Positions 1 to 50,052 of a stretch of 64,000 nucleotides of DNA are shown here, piece after piece. The notes beneath the pieces were generated by a model. The model worked only from the letters and a program-made list of their open reading frames with translations, did not search any database and was not told the DNA's origin. The stretch's first letter is position 1, and each line of letters starts with the position of its first letter. The translations under genes and the position numbers were made by a program. The stretch comes from Gammaproteobacteria bacterium (GTDB taxonomy: Bacteria > Pseudomonadota > Gammaproteobacteria > Pseudomonadales > Azotimanducaceae), in the NCBI GenBank assembly GCA_026707735.1, contig JAPOWH010000012.1, positions 77,990 to 141,989 of the forward strand. Reading direction: 5' to 3'.

Positions 1-523
1 ATTGATGGTGAAGAACCTTGAGCATCTGGAAAGTGTATTTGCGATGGCCAACGATGCTCTGCAAGACACAGTATGGGGAACCAATCACCCAAACTTTGCA
101 GACCGGGGCCAGCAGTTGAGTAGAGCTGCACGGGCATTAAAGATCTGGATGTCGGTTCAGACGTTTGGGATGGCTAAGTTTCGTGCAGCAGTGCAAAGTG
201 GACTGGACCTAGCACAAGAAGCTGCCAAATATGTCGAGGAAAGTCCTTTGCTCGAAGTCATGGCGCCCGTGACGTTAGGTGTCTTGTGTTTCCGTGTCAA
301 TCCAGAAGGCCGTGATTGCAATGAAGCTACTTTGGAATCGGTCAATAGGAATGTTTTGGTTCGTGCCTTCTGGGACGAACGAATGTTTTTTTCTTCTACG
401 TCGCTAAAGGGGATCTTTTCCTTGCGACTCTGCATTTTGAATCACACAACTTCATGGGACGACGTGCGTAGCACGTTGGATCAGGTGATTCAATATGGAA
501 AAGAAGCCTTGGCCGAGTCGTAG
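1..523 (+). CDS. PLP-dependent (group II) amino-acid decarboxylase, C-terminal fragment; the 5' end lies outside the window
   Basis: The frame is open from the window edge (frame of nt 2) to TAG at 521-523. The tail (RAARALKIWMSVQTFG ... CFRV ... SLRLCILNHTT) resembles the C-terminal small domain of aromatic-amino-acid/glutamate-type decarboxylases. Recognition is from memory only. Confidence 0.6.
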   Translation, partial: LMVKNLEHLESVFAMANDALQDTVWGTNHPNFADRGQQLSRAARALKIWMSVQTFGMAKFRAAVQSGLDLAQEAAKYVEESPLLEVMAPVTLGVLCFRVNPEGRDCNEATLESVNRNVLVRAFWDERMFFSSTSLKGIFSLRLCILNHTTSWDDVRSTLDQVIQYGKEALAES

Positions 524-605
524 TCGGCATTGGCAGTAGGGCCGCTAAAGTGCTATCTGTTGATCTCAATCCGCTTGTTGTTTAGAGGTTGGCACTACTG
601 AATTC

Positions 606-628
606 GAACTTATTCTCAGAATGAGTTC
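606..628. terminator. AT-rich hairpin between convergent genes; possible bidirectional terminator
   Basis: GAACTTATTCT-C-AGAATGAGTTC forms an 11-bp stem with one mismatch. It lies between the stop at 521-523 (+) and the stop at 655-657 (-). There is no strong U-tract on either side. Confidence 0.3.
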
Positions 629-654
629 AAATAGTAAGCGAGTAGGAGTAGCTT

Positions 655-1509
655 CTATTTCGGTTGGGTTGAACGTCTTGACTGTCTCTGATTGCGACGC
701 TCCTCCCCCTTAGCACGCAGCAATTCGCGATCCTCTTCGCGAATTTCCATGTACTTTTGCTTCCATTCTCGGCTTGCGTCCCAATGGAATGGAGAGAGCC
801 AGGTTGTTCTGGGTGAGACGACTGTCTCAAGCATCGCAAGTCCCTGCCGTAGATTTCGCTCTTGCATCTCCCGATCATAGGGCTTACCCATAGGGTTGCC
901 CAGTGGGTAATCAGTAAATAGGAATCGTGCCACGCCGCACAATTCCACGACGTCTTTCGCCGATCCAATGATCACCGTAGCTATGCCATTTTGTTCGAGT
1001 ACTCGAGATATCAGACTCACGGTCTGATGACAAACCGGTCACAAAGGGACCATGAGCAATGCGTCCACTTGGTCTTCTACGCAATAGCGCAACACCAAGT
1101 TTGCATCTGACTCAATCGTCTTGCGCTGACTGTATTCTGTAGGCAGAAAGTAGGACCGCTGAGCAAGGCGTCCTATTGAACCATCGTCGGCAAGTTTACA
1201 TAGAAGCTCGAAGGGAAAGTAGGAGCCAGTATCGTCAAGGTGCGTTGCTGCTCGATCCCATTCCAAGTCGTCTGCGAAAAATTTGTTGGGAAGTTCGTTA
1301 TTTGGTATCGCGACCACATGTCGAGGATCGAACATTTTGCGCGGGTATGTCGCTGCTGTTGTAGCCAGACCCACCACTGATTCTGACAACGGCTTTCCTA
1401 GTGGAGCGCAAACGGAGTCGTCATTGCTGGCCCATCTATATGGAGTGGTGAACCCTTGGGCGGCGTAGTAGTTTCGGGTTCGCTCTATGTACTCTACCGG
1501 TCTATCCAT
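655..1509 (-). CDS. GrdB/PrdB-family (glycine/sarcosine/betaine or D-proline reductase B-like) protein with an in-frame TGA at 1039-1041; candidate selenoprotein
   Basis: ORFs 1039..1509 and 655..1020 are on the same strand and in the same frame. They are separated only by the TGA plus 6 sense codons. The joined 284-aa product reads ...DALLMVPL-U-PVCHQTVSLISRVLEQNGIATV..., which gives a U-x-x-C motif. Confidence 0.65.
1010..1028 (-). promoter_or_regulatory. SECIS-like hairpin downstream of the in-frame UGA
   Basis: The mRNA reads UGA-CCGGUUUGUC-[AUCAGAC CGUGA GUCUGAU]. This is a perfect 7-bp stem with a 5-nt loop containing GU. The stem starts 10 nt after the UGA. Confidence 0.4.
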
Positions 1510-1570
1510 GTCTTAATGAGGCAGGTGTGCTCGAAGTCGTTGCACTCCGACTAGCACTTGCACAACGCCG

Positions 1571-2359
1571 CTACACACCGGGGGCAAAGTGAAAGTAATT
1601 TGGCTTGTCTGCAGACTCAGGCTCTGGTACTTCTAGCTTTTCCAACAACACTCCTGAGTTGGTTAGTGAGACTATTGCAAAGTAGCCGCCACGCGCGGTT
1701 GCAAAAGCTTTGACTGGCGAACCGGGATAGCACGCAACCGTGTCGCCAAGCTTGTAGTCTTGCCACACATGGACGTGTCCAAGTGCCAAGTAGTCAAAAC
1801 CCGACTCCGCGATTTCAGTTTCTGAGATAGTTGACGAAACAAAATCTGTGTTGTTGCTCACGACCTGTCCATGGGCAAGCCCAATGTTCCATGGTTGGGT
1901 AGCCTTTCCAGGCACTCCCAGCAGTGGTCGGTTTTCGGGGGTATGTTCTGCCATCGCGCGCCCCCACAAGCTCACGCCAAGTTCTGCAAGCTCTATTGAA
2001 GCTCCGTTTTCCTCAAGCAGAAAATGAACGTTTCTTCCGAGATCTGCCGAGTCAAATCGATTCCAAACTGATTTTTCGTCGTGCACATCGTGGTTTCCAG
2101 GTATCACTACGATAGGACACTCCAAACGATCGAATTGCCTACACACAAATTCGATGTCATGCGATTTAACTCGTGCATGATCGAAAAGATCTCCAACAAC
2201 AAGGAATAGGTCGCAACGTTTGTTTAGAACTTGCTCCACTACGTATGCGAAGGCGGCTTCAGCTACATTTCTAAAGCCATTCACAGGATTGGAGCTGGCG
2301 TTTCCATCCAAATGCACGTCAGACGTGTGGGCTAGCTTTATGCTCGGTCGCGCTTCCAT
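1571..2359 (-). CDS. Metallophosphoesterase (calcineurin-like / SbcD-like fold)
   Basis: Contains the ordered motifs SDVHLD, VVGDLFDH, IPGNHD and GHVH. Confidence 0.8.
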   Translation of the reverse strand: MEARPSIKLAHTSDVHLDGNASSNPVNGFRNVAEAAFAYVVEQVLNKRCDLFLVVGDLFDHARVKSHDIEFVCRQFDRLECPIVVIPGNHDVHDEKSVWNRFDSADLGRNVHFLLEENGASIELAELGVSLWGRAMAEHTPENRPLLGVPGKATQPWNIGLAHGQVVSNNTDFVSSTISETEIAESGFDYLALGHVHVWQDYKLGDTVACYPGSPVKAFATARGGYFAIVSLTNSGVLLEKLEVPEPESADKPNYFHFAPGV

Positions 2360-2364
2360 GTGTG

Positions 2365-2913
2365 TCAGTCAATCAGTTGCAGAAATTCAGCTCTCGTTGC
2401 CGGGTCTTCACGAAATGAACCAAGTAATACAGATGTCTTCATCATCGAGTGCTGCTTTTCGACGCCGCGCATTTGCATGCAGAGATGTTGTGCCTCGACG
2501 AGGACGCCTACACCGCTAGCTTCTGTCACATTCATGATCGTTTGCGCAACATCTTGCGTAAGGCGCTCCTGAATTTGCAGTCGGCGCGCAAACATGTCGA
2601 CGATCCGTGCAATCTTCGATAGCCCCAAGACTTTGCCATGCGGCAAGTAGCCTACATGGCACTTGCCAATGAATGGAAGTATGTGATGCTCGCAAAGCGA
2701 ATAGAGTTCAATGTCTTTCACGATGATAATTTCATCGATGTTTGATTGGTAGAGCGCATTGTTTACGATCGATCCAATGTCCTCGTGGTAGCCCTTTGTC
2801 AAGAACTTGATTGCACGTGCGGCCCGATTTGGTGTGTCGACCAATCCATCGCGGTCGGGATCCTCTCCAATATGCTCGATCAGAACTCGATAGGCTTTTG
2901 TAATTGGATCCAT
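2365..2913 (-). CDS. folE: GTP cyclohydrolase I
   Basis: Contains [17 protein letters not shown] and [10 protein letters not shown]...[12 protein letters not shown] at 2911-2913 is preceded by GGAG. The longer ORF start at 3018 would overlap the upstream gene. Confidence 0.9.
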
Positions 2914-7316: not shown

Positions 7317-8249
7317 TTGATTGTGAATTCAATGCATGACGTAGATCTAACGCCGACGTTTGCCGACCTATTTTGCGGTATTGGCGGCTTTCACCTCGCG
7401 GCTTCAGAATTGGGACTGAGGTGTGCGTTCGCATCGGATATTGATAGAGGTGCGTGTGAAACCTACAAGGTAAATTTTGGAATACAACCTTACGGAGACA
7501 TCGTAAAGATTCCAGCGGACCAAGTTCCAGACCACGATATCTTGTTTGCTGGATTACCGTGTCAGCCATTCAGCATTATCGGAAAGCGAACAGGATTTAG
7601 CGATGCACGAGGAAACCTCTTTTTGGAAGTGGCAAGAATTGCAGCGACAAAACTGCCGCAAGCTATAGTTATCGAGAATGTTCGACAGTTCACAACGTTG
7701 GATGGTGGCAAGGCGTTGAGATGCGTAATCGCAACGCTTGAGGCTCTTGGCTATTCAGTTGCGTGGCGAATCTTGAATGCTCTGGATTTTGGCTTGCCAC
7801 AAAAGCGCGAGAGAGTCTTTGTGGTAGCTACTACGGCATCAATTGATTTCGATTGGCCAAATGGCGACATACCAATGCAGCCGCTAGGCGAATTGTTAGA
7901 GTCGAACCCAGACAAGTGCCATTTTGCGTCGGAACGAATACAAAATGCTCGCAAACGCGCACACCGGGCAACTACCAGCCCGATGATCTGGCACGAAAAC
8001 AAAGGTGGAAATGTTAGTAGCCATCCGTATTCCTGTGCACTTCGTGCTGGTGCATCCTACAATTACTTGCTGGTTGACGGAAAACGACGATTAACGCCGA
8101 GAGAGTTGTTCCGGCTTCAAGGATTCCCTGATAATTTCCAATTGCCACGAAGCATCGCAGCGGCGCGCAGACTGACAGGAAACGCCGTTCCCGTGCCGAT
8201 GGCACGTGCAGTCATTGATAGAGTCATGGAGACGTTAACTCATCGTTAG
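7317..8249 (+). CDS. DNA (cytosine-5)-methyltransferase
   Basis: Contains C5-MTase motifs I FADLFCGIGGF, IV GLPCQPFS, VI ENV, VIII QKRERVF and X GNAVPVPM. Start candidates are TTG 7317, GTG 7323 and ATG 7332. Confidence 0.92.
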   Translation: MIVNSMHDVDLTPTFADLFCGIGGFHLAASELGLRCAFASDIDRGACETYKVNFGIQPYGDIVKIPADQVPDHDILFAGLPCQPFSIIGKRTGFSDARGNLFLEVARIAATKLPQAIVIENVRQFTTLDGGKALRCVIATLEALGYSVAWRILNALDFGLPQKRERVFVVATTASIDFDWPNGDIPMQPLGELLESNPDKCHFASERIQNARKRAHRATTSPMIWHENKGGNVSSHPYSCALRAGASYNYLLVDGKRRLTPRELFRLQGFPDNFQLPRSIAAARRLTGNAVPVPMARAVIDRVMETLTHR

Positions 8250-8346
8250 ACTAAGAGACAGTGCCAATGCGTCGCTTGGCCCATGGCCAGTAGGGAACAT
8301 TCCAGACAATAGAGTTATCGCAATCGGCCGGCGAATCGTACACTTA

Positions 8347-8970
8347 ATGGCAGTTGGGCGCACTGACATTAGCGGCAATGACTTCGGGGACATTTTCGCA
8401 AGTGCAGTGCAAGGCACGCATTTTTCAAAGCCGCTCGGCATCGTGGATGTAGAGAACGTGGCTACAGGATGGTCGGTAAAGACTGTAAAAACGCAATCGA
8501 ACCTCGACAATATTCGACACGTGCGGCTAATCTCCGGTCGTAATTCGCCTACTTATTCGACACAACTGGACAATGTGCGTGACGACCCACAAGCGACAGG
8601 CGAAGCCGTACTTGCCATCTGGAATGCACGCTATAGAATCGCCGCTGAAAAATACAACGATATTCGTACGGTTGTCCTCATACGCAATATGGGAACCCAG
8701 ACGTTTCGTTTATTTGAGGTGCCTACAGCACCCTTTCCTGCAGTTGAGTACACGTGGTCATATAACTCAAAAAACAATCTGGAAGGAAGAGAAAAAGGAA
8801 CCGGACAGCATTGTTTTACTTGGCAACCCCATGGAAGCCAGTTTACTGTGATTCGCCATATTCCCGCTTCTTCGCGTCGCTTTAGCATTGACAGAGTCGT
8901 CAACGCGGTTTCTGTTGAAGCGATCCTTGAGTTGTCTAACTATTCAGACGATTGGATAACCATCGAATAG
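8347..8970 (+). CDS. Hypothetical 207-aa protein; putative type II restriction endonuclease partner of the methyltransferase (family unassigned)
   Basis: Lies 97 nt downstream of the methyltransferase on the same strand. D34-x8-S43-V44-K45-T is compatible with a PD-(D/E)XK-type core. I recognise no named restriction-enzyme family. Confidence 0.4.
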   Translation: MAVGRTDISGNDFGDIFASAVQGTHFSKPLGIVDVENVATGWSVKTVKTQSNLDNIRHVRLISGRNSPTYSTQLDNVRDDPQATGEAVLAIWNARYRIAAEKYNDIRTVVLIRNMGTQTFRLFEVPTAPFPAVEYTWSYNSKNNLEGREKGTGQHCFTWQPHGSQFTVIRHIPASSRRFSIDRVVNAVSVEAILELSNYSDDWITIE

Positions 8971-9058
8971 TGTCCTGGGTCTATTTCGGAGGTGAAGCTA
9001 ACTCATCGTGGTCAAACGTGCATGTGGTTGTTGAGGGGATGCACAGGAATTCTGAGTA

Positions 9059-9553
9059 TTAGTCATCAAGTGCTAGTCGTTTTCTCCTTAACCGATTCAA
9101 CAGACTAGACAACGCGTTGGTCGAATTGAGTTCGCACTCCCAAATTACAATCACATCAAATCCCGCTTTGCGTAGATCCTTGAGATTTCGCTTGTCGCGT
9201 TCTTTGTTGTTCTTGAATTTATTGATCCAGTATTCCCTATTGGAGCTAGGTATTGACGCATAGGGGCAGTTATCGTGTCTATGCCAAAAGCACCCATGAA
9301 CGAGAATGACTGTTTGGTACCTCGGCAAAACTATGTCGGGTGTTCCTGGTAAGTTTCGATTATGCAACCGAAACCGAAACCCATTGGCATGCAGAAATCT
9401 GCGGACAAGCAACTCAGGCTTTGAGTTCTTGCTGCGAATGCGCCCCATTATCTCGCTGCGCTTTTGCGTAGTTACCGTATCCAACTTATTCGCCCGAATT
9501 GTTGCGCTCAGACTCGAACAATGTGCAGTAGGTAATGGATCGCGGCAGCCCAA
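9059..9553 (-). CDS. vsr: Very short patch repair (T:G mismatch) endonuclease
   Basis: Contains RSEIMGRIRSKNSKPE, PGTPDIVLPRY..VILVHGCFWHRH and IVIWECEL. The start is either TTG at 9553, which abuts the ppk2 stop, or TTG at 9484. Confidence 0.9.
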   Translation of the reverse strand: MGCRDPLPTAHCSSLSATIRANKLDTVTTQKRSEIMGRIRSKNSKPELLVRRFLHANGFRFRLHNRNLPGTPDIVLPRYQTVILVHGCFWHRHDNCPYASIPSSNREYWINKFKNNKERDKRNLKDLRKAGFDVIVIWECELNSTNALSSLLNRLRRKRLALDD

Positions 9554-39807: not shown

Positions 39808-41598
39808 GTGAATCCCATGAAGCCTACCAATATTCACGACCCCAACTACTTTCACAAGGTAGTGGATTGCCAATGGGCGTGTCCAGCTCACACGCCGGTT
39901 CCCGAGTACATTCGGCTCATTGCGCAGCAGCGTTATACGGAAGCGTACATGGTCAATTGGGAATCCAACGTATTCCCAGGCATTCTTGGCAGAACATGCG
40001 ACCGTCCCTGCGAACCAGCATGTCGACGCGTTAGGACTGAAGAGAAGCCAGTGGCAATTTGTCGGCTGAAGCGTGTCGCCGCAGATCACAAGGGGGACAT
40101 CACGCCCTATCTGCCACATGTACCAAAGACGAAGAATGGCAAGAAGATCGCGCTATTGGGAGCTGGCCCAGCTTCACTGGCAGTAGCACGCGACCTGCTT
40201 CCACTGGGCTATGAGATCGACATGTTTGATCGGGATCCTGGGGGCGGTGGCATGATGCGCAGTCAGATTCCCGCCTTTCGACTGCCAGCCGACGTGCTCG
40301 AAGAGGAAGTCGATCTCATAGTAAACATGGGCATTGACGCGTATTACAACCACGAGATCACGAGCATGCGGGAAATGCTCGAAATGAACTACGATGCATA
40401 CTTCGTCGGAACGGGCGCACCTCGAGGAAGGGACCTCGATCTGCCTGGGCGCAAAGAGGTTGCCGACCATATTTCAATAGGCATCGATTGGCTATCGAGC
40501 GTTGCTTTTGGGCACACAACCTCCATTTCCGGCAAGGTAATCGTCATGGGAGGTGGGAATACCGCCATGGACTGCTGCCGAACTTCCAAACGATTGGGCG
40601 CCGAGAACGTGACAGTAGTGGTTCGCTCTGCTTTCCACGTCATGAAGGCTAGCGAATGGGAAAAGGAAGATGCAATGGCGGAGGGCATTCCGATCCTCAA
40701 CAACCGGCCGCCAAAGGAATTCGTACATGAGAATGGACGTCTGAAGGGAGTTGTCTTCGAACGAGTAAAACCAATCGAGGACAACGGTAGACTGAAGTAC
40801 GTCCCGACCGGAGAACCGGATGTCTTTATGGAGGCCGACCACATCCTGATGGCGATAGGTCAGGAGAACCACTGCCCGTGGATCGAACGGGACTTGGGCA
40901 TTGAGTTCGACAAGTGGGACTGCCCGATATTGGACGAGGACACATTGCAGTCAACGCATCCCAAGATCTTTTTCGGCGGCGATTCCGCATTTGGTCCAGA
41001 GAACATTATTTGGGCATCTGCGCATGCACACAAAGCGGCAATTTCGATCCATCTGTTTTGCCAGGGCAGGGATCCCAAGAAGGATAGGCCGCCCGATGGT
41101 GTAAACCTGATAAGTCAGAAGATGGGGATTCACGAATGGAGCTACGACGCCGAACATGATCCTTCTCAACGCTACATCGTCCCACATGCCAATTTGCGGC
41201 GTTCGCTGGACAACATCAAGGTCGAAGTCGAATTGGGTTTTGATGAGCAACTGGGATTCAAGGAAGCGCAACGGTGCTTGAACTGCGACGTGCAGACCGT
41301 GTTTACCGAAAAGCTTTGCATCGAGTGCGACGCATGCATGGACATATGTCCCATGGATTGCATAACCTTTACGGAGAACCGTGACGAGGAGGAGCTAAGA
41401 GCAAATCTACTAGTTCCAGCCGAGAATAACGAACAAGATCTGTATGTGTCCGACCACCTTGATACAGGCAGAGTTATGGTCAAAGACGAAGATTTGTGCC
41501 TTCACTGTGGGCTGTGCGCCGAACGGTGTCCAACAAATGCTTGGGACATGCAGAAATCCGTCGTACACAATCCACAATTGAGCTCGTACGCGGAATGA
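39808..41598 (+). CDS. GltD-like NAD(P)H flavoprotein fused to a C-terminal 2x[4Fe-4S] ferredoxin domain (KorC-like)
   Basis: Has an N-terminal Cys cluster (CQWACPAH...CDRPCEPAC), dinucleotide folds GAGPASLAVA and GGGNTAMDC, and the C-terminal motifs CIECDACMDICP and CLHCGLCAERCP. Confidence 0.75.
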   Translation: MNPMKPTNIHDPNYFHKVVDCQWACPAHTPVPEYIRLIAQQRYTEAYMVNWESNVFPGILGRTCDRPCEPACRRVRTEEKPVAICRLKRVAADHKGDITPYLPHVPKTKNGKKIALLGAGPASLAVARDLLPLGYEIDMFDRDPGGGGMMRSQIPAFRLPADVLEEEVDLIVNMGIDAYYNHEITSMREMLEMNYDAYFVGTGAPRGRDLDLPGRKEVADHISIGIDWLSSVAFGHTTSISGKVIVMGGGNTAMDCCRTSKRLGAENVTVVVRSAFHVMKASEWEKEDAMAEGIPILNNRPPKEFVHENGRLKGVVFERVKPIEDNGRLKYVPTGEPDVFMEADHILMAIGQENHCPWIERDLGIEFDKWDCPILDEDTLQSTHPKIFFGGDSAFGPENIIWASAHAHKAAISIHLFCQGRDPKKDRPPDGVNLISQKMGIHEWSYDAEHDPSQRYIVPHANLRRSLDNIKVEVELGFDEQLGFKEAQRCLNCDVQTVFTEKLCIECDACMDICPMDCITFTENRDEEELRANLLVPAENNEQDLYVSDHLDTGRVMVKDEDLCLHCGLCAERCPTNAWDMQKSVVHNPQLSSYAE

Positions 41599-43418
41599 CC
41601 ACGTACAACGAATTTGTTATACGGTTCGCAAACGTAAACGGCTCTGGATCCGCCAGCGCGAACGGCATGTTCGCCAAGTCTTTGTTCCGCATGGGCATTC
41701 CTGTCGCAACACGGAACATCTTTCCTTCGAACATACAAGGACTACCCACGTGGTTTGAGGTGCGCATTTCCGAGCGGGGCCATTTCGGCCGCCGTGAGGA
41801 CATCGACATCATGGTCGCCATGAATGCGGAGACTTACGAGGAAGACGTTGCATGTCTTAGACCCGGTGGGTATCTGGTGTACGACAACACTCGTGGTCGG
41901 CCAAGAAGCCTACAGAGAAGCGACATTGTTGATGTAGGCATTCCCATCACCAAGCTGATTCTGCCCGAATTCAGTGATCCAAAGCAACGTCAACTGTTCA
42001 AGAACATAGTCTATTTGGGTGCAATGTCAGCATTGCTGAATATCGATTTCAGCATTCTCACAGGCATGGTTTCTTCCCAGTATCGTGGTAAAGACGCACT
42101 CATCAAGCCCAACATCCATGCAATGGAGATCGGGCGCAACTATGCCTACAAGTATCTCGACTGTCCCTTCGACATGCAGGTTCGCCACTCGGAACTGGCA
42201 AAAGGAAAGATCTTCGTTGACGGCAATGAGTCCGCGGCAATTGGAGCGGTCTACGGAGGCGCCACGGTTTGCGCGTGGTATCCCATTACACCGTCAACAT
42301 CCGTCGCTGAAGCCTTCGAAAAGCACGCCCTCAAACTGCGAACAAATCAAGATACAGGCCGTAAAAACTTTGCAGTGATACAGGCCGAGGATGAACTTGC
42401 CGCACTTGGCATGGTGATTGGAGCGGGGTGGAACGGTGCAAGAGCGTTCACAGCCACCAGTGGTCCTGGCATTTCTCTAATGAACGAGTTTCTTGGACTT
42501 GCCTACTTTGCCGAGATTCCGGCAGTTCTGTTCGACATTCAAAGAGCGGGACCCTCTACAGGCATGCCAACCCGAACGCAACAATCTGATTTGCTGAGCG
42601 TAGCATTTGCGTCCCACGGAGATACTCGACATCCGATGTTGTTTCCCTCGAGTCCAAAAGAGTGCTTTGACTTTGCTTCTGCCTCGTTTGACATATCCGA
42701 GCGGATACAGTCGCCAGTTGTAGTAATGAGCGACCTCGATCTCGGAATGAACGAGATGACTTCGGATCCGTTTGACTGGGAAGATGGCCGAAAGTACGAT
42801 CGAGGGAAAGTAATGTCCTTCGACGATCTGGAAGAGTCCGAAGCATTTGGTCGCTACGTGGATTCCGACGGAGACGGAATCGGCTATCGCACGCTACCGG
42901 GCACACACCCATCCAAAGGTTCCTTCTTCACGCGCGGAACCTCTCGCGACGAATATGCAGTGTATACGGAAGCACCTGAAGCATACAGCGAGAACATGGA
43001 TCGACTGGTCCGCAAGTGGGAAACCATCCGTGAACTAATGCCTAAGAGCGAAATTTACGAAGCGAATCACAGAGCAGGCATCCTTTTCTACGGAACATCC
43101 GCCACCCCGATGAAGGAATCGCTGGACATGCTTTATGAAGAGGGGGTGGAGCTCGACACGCTCCGGATTAGATCGTTCCCGTTTGGCCACGAGGTACAGG
43201 AATTCATTGATAGCCATTCCACCGTGTTTTTGGTGGAACAGAATCGAGACGCACAAATGAAAACGCTGATCGTGACTGACCTAAACGTGCACCCGGATCA
43301 AATCCAGTCCATTCTCTACTATGGCGGAATGTCGATTTCGGCCGATTTCATCGTAAATGCGGTGCTTGAGGCCTACGAGAGAGACAAGCTACCGAGGCTC
43401 CGGGAGGTTTCCTCGTGA
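41595..43418 (+). CDS. korA: 2-oxoacid:acceptor oxidoreductase, alpha subunit
   Basis: The N-terminus MTTYNEFVIRFANVNGSGSASANG is the typical gamma/alpha-fusion N-terminus. ATG 41595 forms an ATGA overlap with the upstream stop. Confidence 0.85.
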   Translation: MTTYNEFVIRFANVNGSGSASANGMFAKSLFRMGIPVATRNIFPSNIQGLPTWFEVRISERGHFGRREDIDIMVAMNAETYEEDVACLRPGGYLVYDNTRGRPRSLQRSDIVDVGIPITKLILPEFSDPKQRQLFKNIVYLGAMSALLNIDFSILTGMVSSQYRGKDALIKPNIHAMEIGRNYAYKYLDCPFDMQVRHSELAKGKIFVDGNESAAIGAVYGGATVCAWYPITPSTSVAEAFEKHALKLRTNQDTGRKNFAVIQAEDELAALGMVIGAGWNGARAFTATSGPGISLMNEFLGLAYFAEIPAVLFDIQRAGPSTGMPTRTQQSDLLSVAFASHGDTRHPMLFPSSPKECFDFASASFDISERIQSPVVVMSDLDLGMNEMTSDPFDWEDGRKYDRGKVMSFDDLEESEAFGRYVDSDGDGIGYRTLPGTHPSKGSFFTRGTSRDEYAVYTEAPEAYSENMDRLVRKWETIRELMPKSEIYEANHRAGILFYGTSATPMKESLDMLYEEGVELDTLRIRSFPFGHEVQEFIDSHSTVFLVEQNRDAQMKTLIVTDLNVHPDQIQSILYYGGMSISADFIVNAVLEAYERDKLPRLREVSS

Positions 43419-44470
43419 CATTTGTTGCAAAACCCAAGATTCACCATCCACTGCTCAAGGTGAATGAGATTGGATTGAAGCGTCGGGACTACGAAGGGCT
43501 TGTCTCAACGCTGTGTGCGGGTTGCGGACACGATTCCGTGAGTGCGGCACTGATCCAGGCATGCAGCGAGCTCTCACTGCCGCCACACAAGTTTGCGAAG
43601 CTCTCTGGCATTGGTTGTTCATCAAAGACGCCGAGCTACTTTCTCGGAAACTCCCATGGATTCAATTCAGTTCATGGACGAATGCCTTCGGTTGCAACCG
43701 GCGCCAATATTGCCAATCGTGACCTGATCTATATCGGTGTTTCAGGCGACGGCGACAGCGCTTCAATTGGGCTGGGCCAATTCGCCCACGCGGTACGCCG
43801 CAAAATCAACATGCTCTACATTGTTGACAACAACGGCACTTACGGACTGACGAAAGGACAGTTCTCCGCCACCAATGACCGCGGTTCTACGAATAAGAGA
43901 GGCGTGCCGAATCTGTACACATCGATTGACTTGGTGAGCATGGCGCTGCAGATCGGCGCGAGCTTCGTTGCGAGGAGCTTTTCCGGTGACAAGACTCAGT
44001 TGGTCCCGCTAATGAAAGCCGCGTTGTTGCATCGAGGATTTGCGTTTATAGATGTGATTTCACCTTGTGTGATGTTCAACAACCACGATGGTTCGACCAA
44101 GAGCTATGGCTACATAAGAGACCACTCCGCACCAGTTGTCGATGCTGACTTCATAGCTCCCCAGGAGGAAATCGAAATTTACTACGCACCAGGCACCGCA
44201 GAGACTGTGGCGATGCCCGATGGGTCCTCATTGAGATTGCGCAAACTTGAAGATAGCTACAACCCTCGCAATCGGGTAGACGCGCTTGCCTATGTCCAAA
44301 ATGCGTTGGATGAAGGCGAGGTAGTTACTGGACTGCTTTACGTTGAAGACGATTCGGTGGATTGCCACGAAGTCTTGGAAACTCCGGATGTTCCTCTCAA
44401 TTCGCTTGATGAATCGGTGCTTTGCCCAGGTTCAGCGGAACTGGCAGCCGTAAACGACAGCTTCCGCTAG
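43415..44470 (+). CDS. korB: 2-oxoacid:acceptor oxidoreductase, beta (TPP-binding) subunit
   Basis: Contains CAGCGH, SGIGCSS and GVSGDGDSASIG. Forms a GTGA overlap with the korA stop. Confidence 0.85.
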   Translation: MTFVAKPKIHHPLLKVNEIGLKRRDYEGLVSTLCAGCGHDSVSAALIQACSELSLPPHKFAKLSGIGCSSKTPSYFLGNSHGFNSVHGRMPSVATGANIANRDLIYIGVSGDGDSASIGLGQFAHAVRRKINMLYIVDNNGTYGLTKGQFSATNDRGSTNKRGVPNLYTSIDLVSMALQIGASFVARSFSGDKTQLVPLMKAALLHRGFAFIDVISPCVMFNNHDGSTKSYGYIRDHSAPVVDADFIAPQEEIEIYYAPGTAETVAMPDGSSLRLRKLEDSYNPRNRVDALAYVQNALDEGEVVTGLLYVEDDSVDCHEVLETPDVPLNSLDESVLCPGSAELAAVNDSFR

Positions 44471-48570: not shown

Positions 48571-50052
48571 TTGGCCTTAGAAAGTCTCGACGCCTATTTT
48601 CCAGATTGGAAAGAACGCGAAGCTCTCGCGGAAGCGATGATTCCGCTCATTGGCACGTTGTATCGCAAGAACGTGGTCACCTATTGCTTCGGTCGCGCTT
48701 TGTACAACCAAAGCGTCACGGACATCATGCGTACACATCGTTTTGTGCGGCAAGTGGCGGAAAATGAACTGTCCGAATTCGAGAGCTATCCCGTGCTCAA
48801 GGCGATTTCAAATCTCGATCTCGGTCCAGCGCATCTCGATCTAGGTCAGATAACGACAAGACACATGGAATTGTGCGAGAACGGAAATGGTGCTCCCAGC
48901 GTTGAGGAGTATGTGGCCAAGGAATGTTCCCACGTCATTGGACGACATGTTAAGCCGTTGGCGCAACCTCAGGACGTCGTTCTCTATGGATTCGGTCGCA
49001 TAGGAAGATTGCTGGCAAGATTGTTGATCGAGAAGACGGGCGGTGGAGATCAGCTGCGGCTACGAGCCATAGTACTGAGAAGTGGACCAAAGGACGACTT
49101 GGAAAAGAGAGGAAGTTTGCTGCGTCGCGACTCTGTGCACGGTCCATTCAAAGGAACCATTCGAATCGACGACGAGAACCAGTGTCTAATCGCCAACGGC
49201 AACGTCATCCGATTGATCTACTCGGACGATCCAGGCACGATTGATTACGAGCAGTATGGAATCCATAACGCGTTGATTATTGACAACACAGGTGTGTGGC
49301 GCGACGAAGAGGGATTGAGCAGACACCTGCAGAGCAAGGGCGCAGACCGAGTGATAGTTACTGCACCTGGCAAGGGCACGGTTCCAAACATAGTGTCCGG
49401 AATAAACTCCAATGATTTGTCGCACAATCAGAAGATTCTGTCTGCATCGTCATGCACTACGAACGCCATCGTGCCTGTGTTGAATGTCGTGGATGAGAGG
49501 TTTCGCATCGCTCATGGACACATCGAAACCGTGCATGCGTACACCCCTGACCAGAATCTCACCGATAACTTTCATAGGAAAGACCGACGAGGACGTAGCG
49601 CGCCGCTGAACCTTGTGATAACTGAAACGGGAGCTTCTAAAGTAGTAGCGCATTTCCTTCCGCGTCTTGAAGGGAGACTAACCAGCAACGCAATTCGCGT
49701 ACCGACTCCAAACGTCTCGCTTGCGTGCTTGAACCTTACATTGGAGTCCGATACAACCAAGGAAGAGCTGAACACTTTCTTGCGGGACGTGTCTCTGTTT
49801 TCGCCAATGCAACGGCAGTTGGACTACACCCAAGGCACTGAAGTTGTATCGTCAGATTTCGTAGGTAATCGACATGCATGCGTTGTTGATGGACGCGCGA
49901 CTATCGTCGATGGAGGCAACCGTGTACAAATCTATGCTTGGTACGACAATGAATTCGGCTATTGTTGCCAAGTTATACGCGTCGTACAAAAATGGGCAGG
50001 TATCAAATATCCCCTAGTTCCGGTTGGTATAGAGGAAATGGGCTTCGCCTAG
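48571..50052 (+). CDS. gap: Glyceraldehyde-3-phosphate dehydrogenase, long form with N-terminal extension
   Basis: Contains GFGRIGR and the catalytic SASSCTTNA. An extra region of about 130 aa precedes the Rossmann fold. Uses a TTG start. Confidence 0.85.
   Translation: MALESLDAYFPDWKEREALAEAMIPLIGTLYRKNVVTYCFGRALYNQSVTDIMRTHRFVRQVAENELSEFESYPVLKAISNLDLGPAHLDLGQITTRHMELCENGNGAPSVEEYVAKECSHVIGRHVKPLAQPQDVVLYGFGRIGRLLARLLIEKTGGGDQLRLRAIVLRSGPKDDLEKRGSLLRRDSVHGPFKGTIRIDDENQCLIANGNVIRLIYSDDPGTIDYEQYGIHNALIIDNTGVWRDEEGLSRHLQSKGADRVIVTAPGKGTVPNIVSGINSNDLSHNQKILSASSCTTNAIVPVLNVVDERFRIAHGHIETVHAYTPDQNLTDNFHRKDRRGRSAPLNLVITETGASKVVAHFLPRLEGRLTSNAIRVPTPNVSLACLNLTLESDTTKEELNTFLRDVSLFSPMQRQLDYTQGTEVVSSDFVGNRHACVVDGRATIVDGGNRVQIYAWYDNEFGYCCQVIRVVQKWAGIKYPLVPVGIEEMGFA

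Follow-up and report, generated by a model that had tools for sequence, protein, structure and literature searches.

The stretch of DNA analysed here, 64,000 nucleotides of contig JAPOWH010000012.1 and referred to in its whole length as the window, carries near its beginning and on the minus strand a gene at 655..1509 that appears in the list of open reading frames (ORFs) as two short ORFs and that we read as one gene for a PrdB-like selenoprotein. When the minus strand was read over 500..1700 alongside the ORF list, the first ORF (1509..1039) was found to start with ATG, to encode 156 amino acids (aa) and to end at TGA 1041..1039. It is followed in the same frame by the second ORF, after a gap of 18 nucleotides (nt) that make up the six codons CCG GTT TGT CAT CAG ACC (P V C H Q T). 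Translation straight through from 1509 to 655 yields 284 residues, interrupted by a stop only at codon 157 (...LLMVPL-U-PVCHQTVSLISR..., where U stands for selenocysteine, Sec). The features of the locus, two of them hairpins of which one has the character of a selenocysteine insertion sequence (SECIS), are given below.

655..1509, minus strand: complete coding sequence of the predicted 284-residue PrdB-like selenoprotein, with ATG at 1509..1507, the Sec codon at 1041..1039 and the stop TAG at 657..655 (from translation)
1039..1509, minus strand: N-terminal fragment of 156 aa, in the form given by gene callers (from the ORF list)
655..1020, minus strand: C-terminal fragment of 121 aa from an internal GTG, in the form given by gene callers (from the ORF list)
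1039..1041, minus strand: in-frame UGA, very probably read as Sec, residue 157 (from the Cys/TGA column and the PrdB alignment)
1030..1041, minus strand: putative U-P-V-C redox motif, U157 to C160, followed by H161-Q162-T163 (from family conservation)
1010..1028, minus strand: SECIS-type hairpin, with the 5' arm 1028..1022 (AUCAGAC), the loop 1021..1017 (CGUGA) and the 3' arm 1016..1010 (GUCUGAU)
1020..1037, minus strand: competing hairpin CGGUUUG-UCAU-CAGACCG from the minimum free energy fold, judged not functional

A sequence-only reading that preceded this work had described the two ORFs as lying on the same strand and in the same frame, separated only by the TGA and six sense codons, with a read-through product of 284 aa containing ...MVPL-U157-PVC160-HQTV... 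and a 7-bp hairpin, AUCAGAC-CGUGA-GUCUGAU, 10 nt past the UGA. The ORF list gives exactly these coordinates, the separation and the product were confirmed from the sequence and its translation, and the hairpin is present at 1028..1010 as described. Its proposal of one Sec-decoding gene is upheld by the homologues, in that the full-length ones are single ORFs with Cys at the TGA column and the downstream frame is conserved.

A search with the joined protein returned 211 homologues, nearly all of them single polypeptides of about 290 aa, which align end to end with the query at 43-49% identity over 94-100% of its length. In the full-length homologues the column of the UGA is occupied by Cys, within PL-C-PVCHQT, the most conserved motif of the family, and P158, V159, C160, H161, Q162 and T163 are invariant (70 sequences). 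Two matches of 156-157 aa stop exactly at ...VPL; their contigs, L001 and L002, have the same gene order as the window and carry TGA at this point with a conserved in-frame continuation behind it. Across the set, homologues end at 157 only when they also have TGA, and all the full-length ones have Cys at this site, as the sequence-only reading would have it. A genome scan added five more loci, all with TGA and with identities down to 47%, and a metagenome scan added 80. The closest orthologue, 91% identical and with the same synteny, lies on the complete chromosome OZ242170.1 of a Candidatus Azotimanducaceae metagenome-assembled genome (Pseudomonadales, Gammaproteobacteria). Judged by this orthologue, the window comes from a marine gammaproteobacterium of the Pseudomonadales, near to Candidatus Azotimanducaceae.

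The motif-bearing set comprises 87 sequences, namely the window and 86 related loci, of which 62 have TGA and 25 have TGT or TGC at the UGA column. The TGA-bearing loci range from 44 to 94% in protein identity, and in all 62 the frame remains open for 103-135 codons past the TGA. Between the window and its relatives, the ratio of nonsynonymous to synonymous substitution rates (dN/dS) is 0.10-0.13 downstream of the UGA and 0.12-0.15 upstream of it. Judged by these open frames and matching ratios, translation continues past the UGA and selection acts on the part behind it, so that both a pseudogene and two separate genes are ruled out.

A pseudogene would have arisen by a nonsense change from TGY to TGA that inactivated a Cys-type PrdB-like gene. 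The change required is small, as TGA is one base away from TGT and TGC and Cys forms are common (25/87), and no Sec machinery lies in the window. However, the same TGA is found in 62 loci over the range of identities given above, the frame behind it is always open with a dN/dS equal to that of the upstream half, close relatives display neither frameshifts nor neutral evolution, and a TGA-specific hairpin is kept by synonymous-site constraint and compensatory change. We assign the pseudogene a practically negligible probability.

The case for two separate genes, one of 156 aa ending at the UGA and one of 121 aa beginning at GTG 1020, is made by the gene callers, all of which report the split, and by the many half-length cluster representatives in protein databases. 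On 9 public contigs the exact 156-aa product is called as a gene of its own, and the four shown are all called as 156 + 121 aa; among 1.84 billion cluster representatives searched, dozens of matches either stop at profile position 158-159 or start only at 162-167. Yet the six codons that the split skips encode PVCHQT, each Cys homologue is a single polypeptide, and the annotated PrdB, with Sec at the same site, is likewise one chain. The predicted structure, moreover, forms one domain in which the strand that precedes the UGA and the helix that follows it would belong to a single alpha/beta unit. ORF 655..1020 is not an independent gene, since its dN/dS equals that of the upstream half and the six omitted codons encode the family's most conserved motif. 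The two-gene arrangement is accordingly left with a very small probability. That automated annotation mis-splits the gene, as had been anticipated, is true of every public copy inspected, and the annotation is to be corrected by merging two 'hypothetical' ORFs into one selenoprotein gene.

The hairpin at 1028..1010 carries the next part of the argument. In the alignment of the Sec forms, 96% of the cells of this helix are paired, and when the helix is slid to other registers the pairing collapses to 15-32%, in every case below the true register. All seven stem pairs are present in 56 of the 62 Sec forms versus 2 of the 25 Cys forms. Two stem pairs covary, one between CG (41), UA (7) and UG (2) and the other, without mismatch, between GC (44) and AU (9); the latter exchange consists of coupled synonymous changes from CAG to CAA (Gln) and from CTG to TTG (Leu). 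The covariation score of 0.152 compares with 0.081 in shuffles, and 0 of 500 shuffles reach it. The same constraint can be followed in the codons of the element: the loop CGUGA is invariant in all TGA forms (62/62), the Val codon in the loop (+7) is GTG in 62/62 Sec forms versus 6/25 Cys forms, and the Ser codon in the stem (+8) is AGT in 62/62 Sec forms, whereas the Cys forms have AGT in 2/25 and AGC in 22/25. This fixation of GTG and AGT is not codon bias, because both are rarer elsewhere in the same 62 genes (AGT in 73 of 1,211 Ser codons and GTG in 549 of 1,489 Val codons).

A single sequence leaves the matter undecided, but the hairpin is beyond chance, since TGA orthologues keep it with covariation and Cys homologues do not. 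The sequence-only reading had itself named conservation of the hairpin in TGA-carrying orthologues as a test, and the element passes it, being retained there with compensatory changes and degraded in the Cys forms. The 62 Sec and 25 Cys forms thereby amount to a clean natural experiment, in which a SECIS within a coding sequence imposes synonymous-site constraint and compensatory change. Bacterial SECIS elements resemble the window hairpin in position, size and a conserved loop containing G and U.

Variants of the element were seen within the family. Five divergent Sec forms, the HQSVSLT subgroup (motif U-PVCHQSVSLT), are without the standard stem and fold into a shifted one, CCGUGA/UCACGG plus two pairs, with a GUC triloop and the same GUGAGU core. 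From these sequences, the SECIS appears to have been remodelled within one family. Their hairpin regions lie as follows.

L021 2685-2732, L022 3475-3522, L033 890-937, L037 665-712 and L080 944-991: hairpin regions of the HQSVSLT-subgroup loci

Two Cys-form members with TGT, at L049 3454-3501 and L050 2029-2076, have the full Sec-type hairpin CACCAGACCGTGAGTCTGGT, including GTG and AGT, and this looks like a recent Sec-to-Cys conversion that left a 'fossil' SECIS. The annotated prdB of Terrisporobacter also has a 7-bp hairpin; counting from the U of the UGA, the 5' arm lies at nt 18-24 there and at nt 14-20 in the window gene. Rfam gave no match to the hairpin region at gathering or permissive thresholds.

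The relationship of the protein to known families was examined with profiles and with individual sequences. The best NCBIfam match is TIGR04483 (PrdB; E 1.8e-17), with weaker matches to GrdF (5.8e-8), GrdH (1.4e-7) and GrdB, and some homologues carry precomputed PF07355 (GRDB) matches, so that similarity to the GrdB/PrdB superfamily (PF07355/TIGR01918) is present, though below curated cut-offs. A tblastn search against plasmids recovered annotated prdB genes, and the PrdB of the Terrisporobacter petrolearius plasmid reads ...LLTAG-U-GTCH-RSAVLV.... BLASTP aligns 222 residues of the window protein and this PrdB at 30% identity (E 3e-26), so that U157 falls on PrdB U151 and C160 on the PrdB Cys, and U-x-x-C-H is common to both; by this alignment, Sec157 is homologous to the PrdB Sec. 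The sequence-only reading had named the product a GrdB/PrdB-family reductase. The family relation stands, through TIGR04483, the alignment with PrdB and the coincidence of U with Sec, while the term 'reductase' is taken over from the family only. An AlphaFold2 model (predicted local distance difference test score 88.8, predicted template modelling score 0.89) places U157 in a turn between the strand 150-154 and the helix 159-173. No match was obtained in the PDB by sequence, from either the single sequence or a profile. Foldseek of the model against the PDB gave a best E of 0.044 with template modelling scores of at most 0.28, and with it no usable structural analogue and no solved structure of the GrdB/PrdB type.

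Several observations weigh against the interpretation developed so far and need to be considered together. Taken alone, the 66-nt fold around the hairpin is no more stable than its shuffles (z = -0.74). In this context RNAfold prefers the hairpin 1037..1020, which is mutually exclusive with 1028..1010, and in a 48-nt context the competing hairpin has -8.9 versus -7.9 kcal/mol for the SECIS-type one. Since 1037..1020 is about 1 kcal/mol more stable, a single sequence cannot choose between the two. The 64-kb window and the fetched flanks were searched for the Sec machinery (ARAGORN, tblastn with E. coli SelA, SelB and SelD, and Pfam), and neither tRNA-Sec nor SelA, SelB or SelD turned up, a negative that is uninformative because the window represents about 2% of a genome of about 3 Mb. 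The match to TIGR04483 has 63.6 bits and does not reach the equivalog cut-off of 300 bits, TIGR01918 has 22.3 bits versus a cut-off of 65.45, and all curated cut-offs are missed; Pfam gave sub-threshold noise only on the joined 284-aa protein, with no match to GRDB at E < 1. Furthermore, the 62 Sec forms are related sequences, so that their counts make independent events look more numerous than they are; the covarying pairs and the codon control within the genes stand despite this kinship, as neither depends on the independence of the sequences. Lastly, any catalytic function would be extrapolated from distant relatives.

The competing hairpin was rejected on the set of 53 distinct Sec-form sequences. 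One of its pairs fails to form in 33 of them and another in 18, its pairing of 84.9% equals the shuffle mean, and it displays no covariation.

That selA, selB, selC and selD were not found in the window and flanks would also suit read-through without Sec, in which an organism that has no Sec pathway inserts Trp or Cys by near-cognate decoding or suppresses the stop with the help of the hairpin; it is well established that downstream hairpins can stimulate read-through generally. However, the site coincides with the catalytic Sec of PrdB and holds Cys in homologues, an exchange of Sec and Cys that is the classic mark of selenoproteins, and the position, size and invariant G/U loop of the hairpin fit a bacterial SECIS. 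The conservation of the loop sequence in 62/62 forms suggests recognition by a protein over mere stability. The family is, moreover, listed among the selenoproteins of marine datasets in which SelD is abundant too (PMC2398784). We regard read-through without Sec as highly unlikely. Genome-wide reassignment of UGA was ruled out, since UGA is the normal stop in 17 of the 49 window genes and only the PrdB-like gene has an internal TGA. A scan of the window for a second selenoprotein gene produced five TGA-joined ORF pairs, mostly outside annotated genes, and none of the three pairs with the longest halves looks coding when translated.

We therefore hold it to be highly probable that 655..1509 is a single gene in which the UGA is recoded to Sec with a downstream hairpin and whose product is a standalone PrdB-like protein. 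For the Sec recoding at UGA 1041..1039 taken by itself, our confidence is high, at about nine chances in ten. In the mechanism that we propose, the UGA at 1041..1039 would be recoded to selenocysteine during translation, and the hairpin 1028..1010 would serve as the bacterial SECIS, bringing SelB-GTP-Sec-tRNA(Sec) to the ribosome by the established bacterial mechanism. Sec157 and Cys160 would then pair as U-x-x-C where a helix begins and would correspond, by homology, to the catalytic Sec and the resolving Cys of PrdB. From this homology, the most likely chemistry would be selenol/thiol redox catalysis via a selenenylsulfide (Se-S, U157-C160) intermediate. The predicted placement of U157 at a helix N-terminus resembles that in CxxC redox centres. 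For any specific enzymatic function, our confidence is moderate to low.

The genomic context bears on whether the protein is a D-proline reductase. In the prd locus of Terrisporobacter, prdA, one small ORF and prdB lie in a row. No PrdA was found in the window (Pfam on 48 ORFs, no PF09338) or in 436 kb around 88 related loci; an adjacent PrdA, as in a prd operon, is thus absent from the loci examined, and a prdA could lie at a distance in the genome. No neighbouring gene is conserved across the 88 loci, with no non-self cluster in more than 9 of them, and the same-strand run in the window of genes for a luciferase-like protein, an amidohydrolase, an aldo-keto reductase, FolE and a metallophosphoesterase is common only to the closest relatives. 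A promoter and terminator scan of 400..2500 returned counts at chance level. The hosts of the family include marine Pseudomonadales, Bradyrhizobium and Roseomonas, which are not known as Stickland fermenters.

A genuine PrdB subunit of D-proline reductase, with its PrdA encoded elsewhere in the genome, would be in keeping with PrdB as the best NCBIfam match, with the homologous Sec and Cys positions and with the label 'D-proline reductase PrdB' that members bear at the JGI and in the selenoproteome literature. Against it stand the score, far short of the equivalog cut-off, the lack of the prdA that real prd loci have directly upstream, the extra conserved N- and C-terminal segments, the sequence PTEYSQRKT where annotated PrdB has MGGGGNQQKF, and the nature of the hosts. 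We see only a slim chance that it is a genuine PrdB. Because no pyruvoyl partner PrdA was found, the window protein is probably not a D-proline reductase. As far as its sequence allows, it is placed as a standalone member of the GrdB/PrdB superfamily and not demonstrably a D-proline reductase, since its score is far below the PrdB cut-off, no PrdA and no conserved neighbour were found and it has motifs of its own. Beyond this, we lean slightly towards the view that the standalone PrdB-like selenoproteins, marine and soil, are subunits of neither proline nor glycine reductases and represent a separate enzyme family that works with the ancestral U/C-x-x-C-H centre and no pyruvoyl partner.

A sister Cys subfamily (motif VPN-C-PVCHQ) is fused to other domains in four proteins. 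P0125 (805 aa) and P0123 (514 aa) have an N-terminal AMP-binding (adenylate-forming) domain according to Pfam, P0124 (403 aa) has a 108-residue N-terminal extension with no assigned domain, and P0138 (480 aa) has a Ser/Thr kinase domain. Such fusions may hint at the function of the family, and those with AMP-binding domains hint at a carboxylate-activating partner; in the fetched loci, no matches to AMP-binding or kinase domains were found beside unfused family members. On the Roseomonas haemaphysalidis plasmid NZ_CP061179.1 (L092 6968-9353), the gene of a Cys-form member, with the annotation 'glycine/sarcosine/betaine reductase selenoprotein B family protein', and the gene for SelO, a protein adenylyltransferase, are adjacent and point tail to tail.

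Some further observations concern other parts of the window and its relatives. Between the PPK2 gene and the luciferase-like gene (7317-9553) lie a Dcm-type C5 cytosine methylase (7317..8249, plus strand), next to it a 207-aa ORF with no Pfam match (8347..8970, plus strand), and a Vsr mismatch endonuclease (9059..9553, minus strand). The methylase and the 207-aa ORF look like an inserted cassette of the restriction-modification type, since the relative L001 has only Vsr at the same position. The glyceraldehyde-3-phosphate dehydrogenase ORF at 48571-50052 is 493 aa long from TTG, and its Pfam domains begin only at residue 135, which points either to a true start further downstream or to an unusual extension at the N-terminus. 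Three consecutive plus-strand genes at 39808-44470 resemble a 2-oxoacid:ferredoxin oxidoreductase system, consisting by Pfam of a pyridine nucleotide-disulphide oxidoreductase with 4Fe-4S domains, a POR/POR_N protein and a thiamine pyrophosphate-binding subunit. The pyridoxal phosphate-dependent decarboxylase orthologous to window 2..523 is intact in L093 2987-4390 (467 aa) and split into 303 + 148/158 aa in L094 2987-4419 and L095 2987-4389. In L094 the split is due to an indel of one base, about 477 nt from the beginning of the gene, and the split decarboxylase is a matter of frameshift or assembly error, not of recoding.

Several known systems can be set beside the window gene. The SECIS of E. 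coli fdhF is a short stem-loop within the coding sequence, about 10-11 nt past the UGA and with a conserved apical G and U, and the window hairpin is alike in these respects. In contrast to the fdhF element, the window hairpin has the loop CGUGA and a perfect 7-bp stem without the bulged U, and its SECIS role is predicted. GrdB, GrdF and GrdH (PF07355) give weak but significant matches (E 6e-8 to 5e-5), which fall on their C-terminal third, the region of the Sec. The window protein differs from them in being about 150 residues shorter, without the N-terminal two thirds, and neither GrdA, GrdC nor GrdE is encoded near its gene. The likeness to PrdB (TIGR04483, of the Clostridium sticklandii type, with Terrisporobacter as the case compared) extends to the homologous Sec, the U-x-x-C-H motif, the strand-helix site and the hairpin past the UGA. 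In contrast to PrdB, the window protein has about 30 extra N-terminal and about 40 extra C-terminal residues and different conserved motifs, its gene has no adjacent prdA or prd operon, and taxa and habitats differ.

Family members of this kind have been met before in the sea. The Sargasso Sea selenoproteome contained 'proline reductase PrdB', with a UXXC motif, as its third most abundant family with 42 Sec genes (Zhang, Fomenko and Gladyshev 2005; PMC1088965), and the Global Ocean Sampling selenoproteome contained 235 Sec and 110 Cys forms under pfam07355, again with a UxxC motif (Zhang and Gladyshev 2008; PMC2398784). In later reviews, D-proline reductase appears under TIGR04483 and the marine proteins are not set apart. 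A literature search on standalone PrdB-like or GrdB-like proteins found no characterisation, only unrelated Synergistota work. The marine 'PrdB' family of the two selenoproteome papers and the window gene have in common a marine origin, UxxC, homology to PrdB/GRDB and the occurrence of both Sec and Cys forms, and based on motif, habitat and annotation the window gene most probably belongs to this same family. The papers of 2005 and 2008 described the family as a selenoprotein abundant in the sea, so that neither it nor its Sec recoding is new, and the window gene adds one more member to it. Those papers labelled the family by its nearest characterised relative and did not address the absence of PrdA. 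If the standalone proteins are indeed an enzyme family of their own, one of the most abundant selenoprotein families of the surface ocean has been misleadingly labelled since 2005. The finding sharpens the biological question of the role that a PrdA-less, PrdB-like selenoprotein, abundant in the ocean, plays in marine bacteria.

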